Source: Escherichia coli
GTDB lineage: Bacteria; Pseudomonadota; Gammaproteobacteria; Enterobacterales; Enterobacteriaceae
Length of the DNA stretch: 57,499 bases
Assembly (NCBI RefSeq): GCF_003334315.1
Contig: NZ_QOWR01000027.1
Reading direction: 5' to 3' (one strand)
Each line of letters starts with the position of its first letter. Position 1 is the first letter of the stretch. Positions 41,501 through 44,500 of this stretch are shown one piece after another. The position numbers are program-made.

Positions 41501-44500
41501 TCGCCGTTTACGCTCAGGCCCAGCGTTGTATTTTGCGGGTCGCCGGTAAATTCCGCCGCGGGAATAAACCCGGAAAGCGGACAAGAGTTATCAAACGCTT
41601 TAGCCTTTTCCCACGGCTGCCCGGCTTTCTTCATTTTTCCCTGAACATCACGCAACGTCAGATCGAGCGCCACGCCATAACCGGCAATGGCTTTGCGGAC
41701 ATGCTCTTCCGTAGCCTGACGCAGCGTCGCGCCAATCAACACCGCCAGTTCGACTTCATGATGAACTGAACCGAAATCGGATGGGATCGCCAATGGCTGC
41801 CGCAGATCGCACAGTGCCGTTTCTGGTTTAATAAACAGCACTGGCTCTTCGGGCACTGCGCTGCCCATCTCTTTAATATGTTTGGCATAGTTACTGCCAA
41901 CACAGACTACTTTACTCACCGGATAATCCAGCAGCGCACCTTGCCAGTTGTGATGTTGATACATAACGTTCCCCTCACCTTATCGTGGATATGAAAACCC
42001 GCGCCGACAAAGATAATGCCACCGCCGGATATCGGTTATTTGTTAGTGTCGTCTGTTTTCTGCCCCATGACGGAAAGATGTTGCTTCAGCAAATCTTCGG
42101 GTGGTGGCGGTAACTGCAAATAGTAACCTTGCTCGGTTAATGCCTGTTTAACCTTTTCAATATCGGCATTGACCAGTTTCTTCCGCCCATCCAGCGGCAG
42201 AATCATCGCTAACTGAGGCTGACCAAAACCTTTCATCAGTTCCTCAGGAACACGCGAAAAATCGTCTTTTTTTTCGACATATAAATAGGTCTGGTCACGC
42301 TTGCTGCTTCGATAAATCACACAAAACATACTTTTACTCTTTAAGATGCCAGGTTTTGGCATAAGCTAACATCAATGAAACCCGCGCCACAAGCCAGCCA
42401 GCTGTAGATTTCTACGGTTTGTTGAGTCCATGCCCCCTTTATAAGTAATCCCCCCGGCAAAAATGCCGCAACGTGATTTTACCGAACGCAGGAAAGCCAC
42501 TGGAATTCTCCCGTTAGGGATTGTTATATTATAACAGTTCATCGTACTCATTCTGAACAGGAGACTACCAATGAAAATCAAGAGCATCAGGAAGGCTGTA
42601 TTGCTGCTTGCACTGCTAACCTCCACGAGCTTTGCTGCGGGTAAGAATGTCAATGTTGAGTTCAGAAAAGGCCATAGCAGCGCTCAGTACTCCGGCGAAA
42701 TAAAGGGATACGATTACGATACATATACCTTCTATGCCAAAAAAGGTCAGAAAGTGCATGTGAGTATCTCTAATGAAGGCGCTGATACTTACCTCTTCGG
42801 GCCAGGAATCGATGATTCAGTTGATTTATCCAGATATTCCCCAGAACTCGATAGTCACGGACAATACTCACTCCCTGCTTCTGGCAAATATGAGCTGCGA
42901 GTGTTGCAAACCCGAAACGACGCCCGTAAAAACAAAACTAAAAAATATAACGTCGATATTCAAATTAAGTAAATGTCAACCGACGGGGACTCTCCCCGTC
43001 ATAAACGTTAATGCCCCACTCCTCTCTGTCGCTCAAGAGGTTAATGACGAATAGAACATAATGTAAACAAGACATCACTCACGACACATAAATAACATCT
43101 TTGTGGTGGTTTGATTGATTTTTCCACTCCGCTTACCATCCACACCAAAATAACGATCATCACGACATAATTTTTCTTTAACATCGCAAAATACACCGTT
43201 AGCGAATGTAAATTCGCTGGGATCGTAGCCTTGTAATGATTGTAAGTTTTCAGCGGCTTTTTCGCCGAGATATTTCCTTGTTAACTCTGGGGAAATGCCA
43301 TCTGAGTTCACACAAATATACGGGTCGCAAACAACGCCGCACGCCGGAGATTGAAGTCCGCCAGCGTCATTTCCAGACGCCATTGATGAGAACATCATCC
43401 CCACACCTGACAATCCGATATAAAAAATACGCATCATATTCATAGCACATCCTGATAATCCAACCGTACAACACTTATGCTCATTTCATCATCAATCCGT
43501 AATCAAAACCGCTGACCTGGACGAGTTACGATGACCTGACAGAAGTATCAGACGTCTTCTGCGGTTTCTATGATAGAGCAATTCTGTGGCGGATATTAAG
43601 ATAACGGGTATCTGTTCTTTAATGATGCTGCAAAAAATGGAAAGTTAAGAAAGCCTGGCGTGGTGAAAAAATACACTTGTCTCAATACTGGATATTTAAA
43701 CAGGTCTGGAGATGCTGTCACGATTAGGGTGCGGAAAAAGGAAGCGTAAATAAGAAGAATCAAAAGTACGACGGCAATGGGTTGATTGACAAGGGTATTT
43801 TTTAAGCTATGAATCAGCGCCATTTATCACAGAATAGACTTTTACTCTGAATAAATGGGAGGGTGACTTGCCTCAATATAATCCAGACTATAACATGCCT
43901 TATAGTCTTCGGAACATCATCGCGCGCTGGCGATGATTAATAGCTAATTGAGTAAGGCCAGGATGTCAAACACGCCAATCGAGCTTAAAGGCAGTAGCTT
44001 CACTTTATCTGTGGTTCATCTGCATGAGGCAGAACCTAAGGTTATCCATCAGGCGCTGGAAGACAAAATCGCTCAGGCCCCCGCATTTTTAAAACATGCC
44101 CCCGTTGTACTCAACGTCAGTGCACTGGAAGACCCGGTAAACTGGTCAGCGATGCATAAGGCGGTTTCGGCAACCGGTTTGCGGGTTATTGGCGTAAGTG
44201 GCTGCAAAGATGCGCAACTTAAAGCCGAAATTGAAAAAATGGGGCTGCCTATCCTGACGGAAGGAAAGGAAAAAGCGCCACGTCCAGCTCCCGCACCGCA
44301 GGCTCCAGCGCAAAATACAACGCCGGTCACAAAAACGCGTTTAATAGATACCCCGGTGCGTTCCGGTCAGCGTATTTATGCTCCACAATGTGATCTGATT
44401 GTTACAAGCCACGTTAGCGCTGGGGCCGAATTGATTGCCGATGGGAACATTCATGTCTATGGCATGATGCGCGGTCGTGCGCTGGCAGGGGCAAGTGGTG

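Follow-up and report, generated by a model that had tools for sequence, protein, structure and literature searches.

In Escherichia coli, the ycgJ start (position 43443, minus strand) and the ATG of minC (position 43963; the plus-strand CDS extends over 43963-44658 according to the ORF listing and the annotation) are separated by a spacer, which raises the question of what this DNA is and whether it encodes anything. All positions given here are those of the window, i.e. the whole stretch of DNA analysed (57,499 nucleotides of the E. coli chromosome). A preliminary description considered the spacer a long leader, most likely non-coding promoter DNA of minCDE, and pointed to a 75-codon minus-strand frame with a hydrophobic stretch as a possibly overlooked small membrane protein. 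The spacer itself was confirmed, with a measured length of 519 bp (43444-43962), and it corresponds to positions 1226599-1226081 of K-12 (NC_000913.3) with 3 mismatches. It is devoid of any annotated feature in the K-12 RefSeq record and in the listed complete E. coli genomes. A search of region 42900-44300 against Rfam (E<=10) returned only chance-level snoRNA/sRNA matches, far under the gathering scores, i.e. no known RNA family. A scan of the region for terminators found none, and a promoter scan yielded a single weak minus-strand site, fewer than are found in shuffled sequences. Comparison with other genomes indicates that the region is very probably composed of two pieces of differing origin, and not of one long minC leader.

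The boundary between the two pieces was located by blastn comparison with 80 minC loci of other species. In 75 of them, including E. albertii, conservation begins at 43828-43840. In genomes lacking the intervening DNA, ycgL is placed approx. 100 bp from minC, and on the ycgL side their homology to the window stops at 42340/42341. Both homology breakpoints carry a copy of a 21-nt imperfect direct repeat, and the copies are 1508 bp apart: one at 42320-42340 (CACAAAACATACTTTTACTCT) and the other at 43828-43848 (CACAGAATAGACTTTTACTCT). The E. coli insert thus flanked is 1508 bp long and contains pliG, ycgJ and the DNA of 43444-43827. Uninterrupted, empty sites are found in E. albertii, E. whittamii, Salmonella, Citrobacter, Klebsiella and others, and the insert (hereafter the islet; body 42341-43827) is missing between ycgL and minC in E. 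albertii, E. whittamii and more than 70 other species. Direct repeats coinciding with the breakpoints of an empty site are a feature of attL and attR, and the two copies were designated accordingly. The reading of the 21-nt repeat as a putative att site is drawn from E. coli and Citrobacter sp. R56, the only two in which both junctions are seen, and from attR junctions shared with other loci. The R56 copy of the element is decayed as well, and its homology to the window continues up to 42398. Two further candidates were rejected. Local alignment of 43444-43870, considered as a degenerate duplicate of ycgL, recovered just the 21-nt junction repeat, with a score within the range of shuffled sequences, and a second direct repeat (42276 and 43691, 77%) was treated as a chance match.

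The attL-side copy retains the conserved ycgL start codon (ATG, 42329-42327, minus strand), and the attR-side copy contains the disabled ancestral start (CTA, 43837-43835, minus strand). The arrangement resembles lambda-type Int/att integration at the 5' end of a host gene, in that the predicted core (about CTTTTACTCT) overlaps the ycgL ribosome-binding site and start codon. As in lambda-type integration with replacement of a gene end, the attL side keeps an intact ATG, and phage-derived DNA provides the new upstream region of ycgL, including the promoter assigned to this gene in E. coli (42557-42528, inside the islet). Unlike in the lambda system, recombination at this site is a prediction and the core length comes from sequence comparison. 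As annotated in E. coli, YcgL begins with 11 codons contributed by phage DNA, and the conserved start of the protein is M12.

The DNA adjoining the attR-side repeat was identified as the end of a tyrosine integrase gene. An nhmmer profile built from six intact integrase genes gave one match in the entire 57.5-kb window (43617-43810, E=6.1e-17), covering positions 881-1075 of the 1094-position model; another nhmmer search gave E=9.8e-15. In a tblastn search, integrase residues 309-349 matched 43660-43782, and the TGA at 43783-43785 is the equivalent of the integrase stop codon. The intact homologue of the remnant matches the integrase family phrog_1, and its relatives carry PF00589, which places the remnant (43617-43785, plus strand, the last ~56 codons) in the tyrosine integrase family. 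Neither an open frame nor an intact catalytic domain (R..HxxR..Y) is present, as the fragment contains stops and frame changes. The stretch corresponding to the HDLRH motif could not be detected (the tblastn match at 43559-43657 is weak, with E=1.3, and contains stops), and no integrase homology was detected to the left of ~43617. The segment 43617-43785 is a pseudogene fragment and not a working integrase. It is followed by the spacer between the integrase stop and the att core (43786-43827, plus strand), the phage arm of attR: the core begins exactly 48 nt after the stop in 6/6 intact elements, and the distance in the window is identical.

Intact or near-intact int genes were found beside minC, with the core at the same distance, in seven loci (L060, L080, L083-L087), and the junction sequence AATAGACTTTTACTCT is shared by the window and four of them (L060, L080, L086, L087). 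Related integrases thus use the ycgL/minC site, with int adjoining one junction, as is typical of integrative elements. Integrases 78-85% identical to the one from Trabulsiella occur in 5 independent places, all with the order int-minC-minD-minE; a 64%-identical integrase adjoins queA, not minC. No intact element was detected in E. coli, as blastn at 'distant' sensitivity matched at most 12% of the Trabulsiella int gene in any of 5426 genomes. Of the sequenced phages, Hafnia phage Meifeng encodes the most similar integrase (65% identity), but the region downstream of its int gene lacks the att core and is therefore uninformative about attP.

The islet has a GC content of 42.8%, compared with 48.5% for the window and 50-53% for minC, minD and ycgM, and its presence in 5421 of the 5426 complete E. 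coli genomes means that it is essentially fixed. Its gene pliG (42571-42972, plus strand), annotated as a g-type lysozyme inhibitor, is of phage origin, a cargo gene of the moron type. It matches phrog_2177 over its full length (E=6.6e-66), its product is 80.5% identical, also over the full length, to STM2610 of Gifsy-1, and the DNA of the cassette is homologous to Gifsy-1 over 42520-42981 (~75% identity). In Gifsy-1, an intact prophage of Salmonella, STM2610 has the lysis genes on one side and the terminase on the other (between Rz and Nu1), whereas the E. coli copy has no surrounding phage genes. The second retained gene, ycgJ (43075-43443, minus strand; PF05666), was present, among the loci fetched, solely in E. 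coli and Escherichia sp. MOD1-EC7003. We infer that pliG and ycgJ came with the same element; for ycgJ this conclusion relies on its position between attL and attR, since no phage homologue of this gene was found among the PHROGs. The region upstream of ycgJ (43444-43616, minus strand), in which no integrase homology is detectable, contains one sigma-70-like consensus match directed towards this gene (43599-43570, TTAATA-18-TATCAT).

In several respects the islet is similar to the cryptic lambdoid prophage remnants of K-12: it has (i) an att-like direct repeat, (ii) a site that is empty in sister species, (iii) a truncated tyrosine integrase by one junction, (iv) a lower GC content and (v) retained cargo genes. 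It differs from them in that a mere 1.5 kb is left, with no structural or regulatory phage gene, in that practically every E. coli genome has it as a fixed feature, and in that K-12 RefSeq gives no indication of a phage origin. Our literature search found no description of this remnant or of its att site.

The minus-strand frame noticed previously (ORF75, 43596-43823) is present: it begins with ATG, specifies 75 aa (MALIHSLKNTLVNQPIAVVLLILLIYASFFRTLIVTASPDLFKYPVLRQVYFFTTPGFLNFPFFAASLKNRYPLS) and includes the quoted hydrophobic segment of ~20 residues. A frame of this length is within the range of chance: when the 519 bp were shuffled 2000 times with the dinucleotide composition preserved, the longest ORF had at least 75 codons in 16% of cases. 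The strand that it occupies is composed of 35.5% T and 13% G, which favours Phe, Leu, Ile and Val codons. No Shine-Dalgarno sequence was found 5-12 nt from the ATG (the upstream 30 nt are TATTCAGAGTAAAAGTCTATTCTGTGATAA). Among 5.8 billion proteins, the homologues detected were confined to 'hypothetical' entries of E. coli and Shigella, and no match was obtained among the PHROGs. A few depositors have called ORF75 a hypothetical protein. The frame is missing from K-12 RefSeq, although small proteins derived from Ribo-seq, e.g. the nearby ymgN, are included there.

In K-12 the frame is intact, with one amino-acid change. Comparison with the sister lineage Escherichia sp. MOD1-EC7003, the one pair on which the substitution test is based, revealed 21 differences in 228 bases (9.2%), the highest rate in the neighbourhood. 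They are distributed 8:6:7 over the codon positions and affect 15 codons nonsynonymously and 5 synonymously, which is close to the neutral expectation; an excess of synonymous or third-position changes, the mark of purifying selection, was not observed. All 75 codons remain open in MOD1-EC7003 in spite of this divergence, which is weak evidence for a gene, as about one third of neutral histories would give the same result. The reading frame is not conserved in related genomes. Variants with frameshifted C-termini exist in E. coli and Shigella, the equivalent frame in the intact and near-intact integrase loci lacks the ATG in 7/7 cases and contains 1-3 stops in 5/7, and in E. albertii and other species the DNA itself is missing. 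ORF75 is most likely a chance frame antisense to the integrase remnant, because the reading frame arose solely through mutations that accompanied decay in the lineage of E. coli and its sequence evolves neutrally, and it presumably makes no functional protein. The earlier preference for non-coding DNA over a missed small membrane protein is therefore supported.

The second piece of the spacer is the ancestral divergent control region of ycgL and minC (43849-43962, plus strand, 114 bp), which is conserved at 80-95% across Enterobacteriaceae and contains the invariant blocks CTTGCCT, GACTATAACATG, CTTCGGAATATC and TGAGTAAGG.CAGGATG. It holds the minC promoter (43866-43902, plus strand), with the -35 hexamer TTGCCT (43868-43873) and the -10 hexamer TATAAC (43889-43894) separated by a 15-nt spacer; both hexamers are invariant in 69 sequences. 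The K-12 transcription start site 1226139, a RACE TSS from RegulonDB used in Reg-Seq (PMC7567609), corresponds to position 43904. Relative to this TSS, Reg-Seq detected RNA polymerase footprints at -38 to -31 and at -15 to -2 and assigned to minC the architecture (0,0), i.e. a single RNAP site (-38 to -2) and no transcription-factor sites (PMC7567609). The published start site and its -10 and -35 elements thus map to 43866-43904, outside ORF75, and the minC 5' UTR comprises just 59 nt (43904-43962). Hence the view of the spacer as a long leader or promoter of minCDE holds for its last ~100 bases, which contain the promoter and a short leader, and is not supported for most of its length, as conservation across genera ends at 43828. 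The DNA of 43444-43827, including the whole of ORF75, is the decayed right end of a phage-like element, consisting of the 3' fragment of the integrase gene and an att arm. The ancestral ycgL promoter region beside ORF75 is intact and might transcribe the ORF75 strand.

The leader itself contains a stem-loop (43916-43937, plus strand; arms ATCATCGC and GCGATGAT, 6-nt loop). A covariance model recovered it upstream of minC, on the plus strand, in 80/80 of the sources searched. In the alignment fitted to this model, 6 of the 8 pairs show compensatory double changes, and 91.9% of cells are paired, compared with 79.8% in shuffles (0/500 reach 91.9%) and with 17-61% when the stem is slid; per-sequence folds were also run. 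Base pairing is thus maintained by compensation, as in structured RNAs. The hairpin has no match in Rfam, and RNAalifold missed it on a plain MAFFT alignment, because indels misplace the 3' arm; this was resolved by the covariance-model alignment.

Other explanations of the locus were also considered. ORF75 might be a real E. coli-specific, single-pass membrane protein missed by annotation pipelines. It shares with the E. coli small membrane proteins validated by Ribo-seq or tagging a short, 'intergenic' frame and one hydrophobic segment, both K-12 and the 9%-diverged MOD1-EC7003 retain it unbroken, it has occasionally been called a hypothetical protein, and it is placed downstream of the orphaned ycgL promoter region, from which it may be transcribed. 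Unlike those proteins, it combines a chance-range length and the lack of a Shine-Dalgarno sequence with an even, near-neutral distribution of substitutions, frameshifted versions in E. coli and Shigella, a closed or startless frame in the intact source elements, and an absence of homologues elsewhere, of PHROG matches and of a K-12 RefSeq entry. We consider such a protein very unlikely. In a variant of this idea, which we hold to be highly improbable, ORF75 would be a gene of very recent de novo origin: decay of the integrase remnant would have opened the antisense frame, the orphaned ancestral ycgL promoter would transcribe it, and the product would be an E. coli-specific single-pass membrane peptide encoded upstream of, and possibly coupled to, ycgJ.

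Two explanations assign a regulatory role to the remnant. In the first, all 519 bp would together form a long 5' leader or an extended regulatory region for minCDE that includes operator sites or promoters further upstream. In its favour, a design note of Reg-Seq (PMC7567609) mentions a second RACE TSS in RegulonDB, which relative to 1226139 is located within ~115 bp on the upstream side or 45 bp on the downstream side; in the upstream case it might reach left to 43789. Against this, Reg-Seq found the one RNAP site described above, other Enterobacteriaceae drive minC from just the ~100 bp that it has in common with ycgL, and the DNA to the left of 43828 is absent from E. albertii and is the fastest-diverging within Escherichia, so that there is scarcely any probability left for a long leader. 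Alternatively, the minus strand of 43596-43880 could be a functional non-coding leader or RNA: transcripts would start at the orphaned ycgL promoter, cross the att/int remnant and continue into ycgJ, whose 5' leader the region would then form. E. coli has kept the ancestral divergent promoter region in full, and this now faces the remnant and ycgJ; a minus-strand TATAGT hexamer overlaps the minC -10, and ycgL itself has been assigned a different promoter, inside the islet. However, the only consensus promoter match for ycgJ is the site nearer the gene (43599-43570), and the high evolutionary rate of the remnant argues against a constrained RNA, which makes this explanation unlikely.

The reading that we prefer, a prophage fossil with a chance ORF75 next to a compact minC control region, has in our estimate a probability of about 0.9. 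According to it, a phage of the lambdoid type would have integrated by tyrosine-integrase recombination into an attB overlapping the ycgL start codon, and the prophage would then have decayed by deletion, leaving attL, the cargo genes pliG and ycgJ, the last ~56 codons of int, the phage arm and attR. The segment 43444-43848 would represent the right end of this 1.5-kb fossil, and 43849-43962 the ancestral compact divergent region, with a constitutive sigma-70 minC promoter, the 59-nt leader and the conserved hairpin. ORF75, running antisense over the int remnant and the att arm, would have been opened only by decay mutations in the E. coli lineage and would evolve neutrally.

The presence of pliG and ycgJ by the min operon of K-12 can thus be explained by a very small prophage fossil that has become fixed and in which attL, attR and part of int can still be recognised. 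A lambdoid integrase subfamily, found in Leclercia, Trabulsiella, Pseudocitrobacter and their relatives, uses the site at ycgL/minC. The insertion parted ycgL from its ancestral promoter, and the ycgLM promoter is now assigned inside phage-derived DNA. ORF75 should stay out of catalogues of small proteins, and the pipelines that sometimes call it are calling an artefact. The minC leader hairpin, previously undescribed, showing covariation and conserved across Enterobacteriaceae, is a candidate element for controlling the levels of the Min proteins after transcription.

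The window is chromosomal DNA of E. coli. The preliminary description reported a 75-codon minus-strand ORF with the segment IAVVLLILLIYASFF, and the ORF listing shows that this frame, here termed ORF75, exists at 43596-43823 and opens with an ATG. It lies in a 519-bp spacer (43444-43962) between ycgJ (43075-43443, minus strand) and the minC ATG (43963). Apart from three mismatches, the spacer corresponds in reverse complement to positions 1226081-1226599 of K-12 NC_000913.3. It was present in 5421 of the 5426 complete E. coli genomes and absent from the other five; a few genomes have it twice, and plasmid-labelled records of these genomes held 12 matches. 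No annotation was found within it in K-12 RefSeq or the other listed E. coli genomes. When the 519 bp were shuffled 2000 times with dinucleotides preserved, 16% of the shuffles held an ORF of at least 75 codons, thus the length of ORF75 is not unusual here. Its strand is T-rich and G-poor (T 35.5%, G 13%), which by itself yields hydrophobic codons, and no Shine-Dalgarno sequence was found ahead of its ATG.

The origin of this DNA was revealed by comparison with 80 minC loci from other species. In 75 of them (including E. albertii, E. whittamii, Salmonella, Citrobacter, Enterobacter, Klebsiella and Kosakonia) homology to the window begins abruptly at 43828-43840 and extends into minC, while on the other side it stops at 42340/42341. 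In the same 75 loci ycgL, followed by ycgM, directly adjoins the divergent minC, and its coding start lies approximately 100 bp from the minC ATG. The two breakpoints, together with the ycgL-minC adjacency elsewhere, show that 1508 bp have been inserted into the ancestral order in E. coli. Of the 80 loci, only that of Escherichia sp. MOD1-EC7003 has ycgJ and a fragment of pliG upstream of minC. Located exactly at both breakpoints is a 21-nt imperfect direct repeat, CACAAAACATACTTTTACTCT on the ycgL side (42320-42340, attL) and CACAGAATAGACTTTTACTCT on the minC side (43828-43848, attR), which spans the ribosome-binding site and start codon of ycgL; the former copy keeps the ATG (42329-42327), and the latter has CTA in its place (43837-43835). 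The GC content of the islet between the repeats is 42.8%, that of the window 48.5%, and that of minC, minD and ycgM 50-53%.

In two loci a phage integrase gene occupies the position of the E. coli ORF. In Trabulsiella guamensis it encodes a 349-aa tyrosine integrase (phrog_1, E=4e-55), ends 44 nt before the breakpoint and is preceded by an excisionase-like gene and a DNA methylase gene; in Pseudocitrobacter faecalis the same gene is in two pieces, and Citrobacter sp. R56 carries a decayed copy. The window aligns to the 3' end of these genes and, translated on the plus strand, reads VVKKYTCLNTGYLNRSGDAVTIRV, which matches MVKKYAHLSAEHLNRFVGSVTFLA at the integrase C-terminus. An nhmmer profile built from six intact integrase genes matched the whole 57.5-kb window only once, on the plus strand at 43617-43810 (E=6.1e-17), with positions 881-1075 of the 1094 in the model, and a second, independent two-sequence profile also recovered this match (E=9.8e-15). 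In all six intact elements the att core AATAGA(C/T)(T/A)TTTACTCT starts 48 nt past the integrase stop codon; in the window the equivalent TGA (43783-43785) lies 48 nt ahead of AATAGACTTTTACTCT at 43833. With this identical spacing, the integrase remnant is collinear with the junction. No integrase homology was detectable left of approximately 43617, and 43444-43616 is simply the ycgJ upstream region, whose sole promoter-like site, a weak one, is at 43599-43570.

Integrases closely related to that of Trabulsiella (78-85% identity, PF00589) occur in Leclercia sp. S52, in a Pluralibacter MAG and on several metagenome contigs. All five of the fetched places encoding them have the gene order int-minC-minD-minE-rnd. 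The lambdoid early genes upstream of int (RecT, Gam, KilR, cI-like repressor) vary among the five, which are therefore different prophages with one common int/att module. A Pectobacterium integrase of 64% identity adjoins queA instead of minC. Taken together, these arrangements point to the ycgL/minC junction as the attB used by a defined subfamily of integrases; no description of this attB was found in the literature searched. Members with at least 78% identity were always directly upstream of minC in these five places, Trabulsiella and Pseudocitrobacter, in differing prophage backgrounds (int at 4001-5050 or equivalent of the fetched locus, minC approximately 175 nt downstream). No intact copy of the element was present in the 5426 E. 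coli genomes.

The islet also contains pliG (42571-42972), encoding a g-type lysozyme inhibitor, which matches phage family phrog_2177 (labelled "unknown function") over its full length (E=6.6e-66). Its counterpart in Salmonella Gifsy-1 (STM2610; L090 3001-3402), a moron located between the lysis genes and terminase, is 80.5% identical to E. coli PliG, and DNA homology with Gifsy-1 is limited to the cassette 42520-42981. YcgJ (PF05666) has no match in PHROG families; solely from the position of its gene between attL and attR, we infer that ycgJ came with the same element. The 19-aa YmgN (b4816), annotated in K-12 RefSeq antisense inside pliG (L001 3869-3928, approximately 42616-42675 of the window), also lies within this phage-derived islet.

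The spacer had been regarded as a minC leader of about 520 bp. The RACE transcription start from RegulonDB that was used in Reg-Seq (K-12 1226139) corresponds to 43904, so the proposed check against start-site maps gives a 5' UTR of only 59 nt (43904-43962), the remainder of the "leader" being foreign DNA. Promoter DNA for minCDE is indeed present: the Reg-Seq RNAP footprints (-38 to -31 and -15 to -2; no transcription-factor sites found) map to a -35 TTGCCT (43868-43873) and a -10 TATAAC (43889-43894) on the plus strand, both invariant across 69 distinct sequences of approximately 30 genera. At 43887-43894 a minus-strand TATAGT overlaps this -10, and both are part of the invariant block GACTATAACATG; this suggests that the -10 elements of the divergent ancestral promoters of ycgL and minC overlap back to back.

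Within the UTR there is an 8-bp hairpin (43916-43937, ATCATCGC/GCGATGAT), whose stem sequences vary by genus yet stay complementary. In an alignment of the 80 loci (approximately 30 enterobacterial genera) that was itself fitted to a covariance model, which bears on the pairing figures, six of eight pairs showed double compensatory changes and 91.9% of cells were paired, versus 79.8% in shuffles (0/500 reached the observed value) and 17-61% with slid partners. The G·U pairs and the on average more stable plus-strand folds (-12.1 versus -10.3 kcal/mol) favour an RNA element of the minC mRNA; it has no Rfam match. An invariant single-stranded block, CTTCGGAA(T/C)ATC, precedes the hairpin. In Intestinirhabdus alba an insertion of approximately 205 bp (L048 2772-2976) separates the hairpin from the Shine-Dalgarno sequence; an inverted repeat of 18 nt lies at 2827-2867 within this insertion, which may be a miniature repeat element.

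ORF75 has nearly the same extent as the plus-strand integrase remnant with its att arm (43617-43827), and is thus antisense to a pseudogene fragment. Were it a missed small protein, conservation of the frame would be expected; the frame is not conserved. None of seven intact or near-intact elements has an ATG at its start position and five carry 1-3 stops in the equivalent frame, which makes ORF75 a by-product of decay within the E. coli lineage. Among 5.8 billion proteins no homologues were found beyond E. coli/Shigella "hypothetical protein" entries, several of which have a frameshifted C-terminus or altered length (67-81 aa). In the pairwise comparison with strain MOD1-EC7003 the region is locally the fastest-evolving stretch (9.2% of bases differ, whereas the ancestral intergenic DNA differs at 3.5% and minC at 1%); its 21 differences are spread 8:6:7 across codon positions and give 15 nonsynonymous and 5 synonymous codon changes, close to the neutral expectation. 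The frame is still open in that strain, which is weak counter-evidence, since by a rough estimate 21 neutral substitutions would leave the frame free of stops in about one third of cases. For ORF75, a chance frame antisense within a prophage fossil is the best explanation (probability about 0.9), in agreement with the earlier preference for non-coding DNA. Decayed prophage remnants with att repeats and an integrase fragment are of a well-known kind; the one between ycgL and minC was found neither annotated in K-12 RefSeq nor described in the literature searched.

The insertion also bears on ycgL. Its ancestral promoter region presumably stays by minC, now facing the att/int remnant and ycgJ. 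As annotated, YcgL begins with 11 codons (42330-42362, minus strand) that are element-derived DNA right of the attL core. All other, element-free species begin the protein with the Met that corresponds to E. coli M12 (ATG 42329-42327); the start annotated in E. coli may lie too far upstream. Genomic SELEX assigned to ycgLM a constitutive promoter (TTCAGA-18-TATAAT; Shimada et al. 2014, PMC3946193), which was placed at 42557-42528 (minus strand), inside the islet, in the pliG cassette homologous to Gifsy-1. Thus, a core operon appears to have lost its ancestral promoter and to be expressed from phage-derived DNA.
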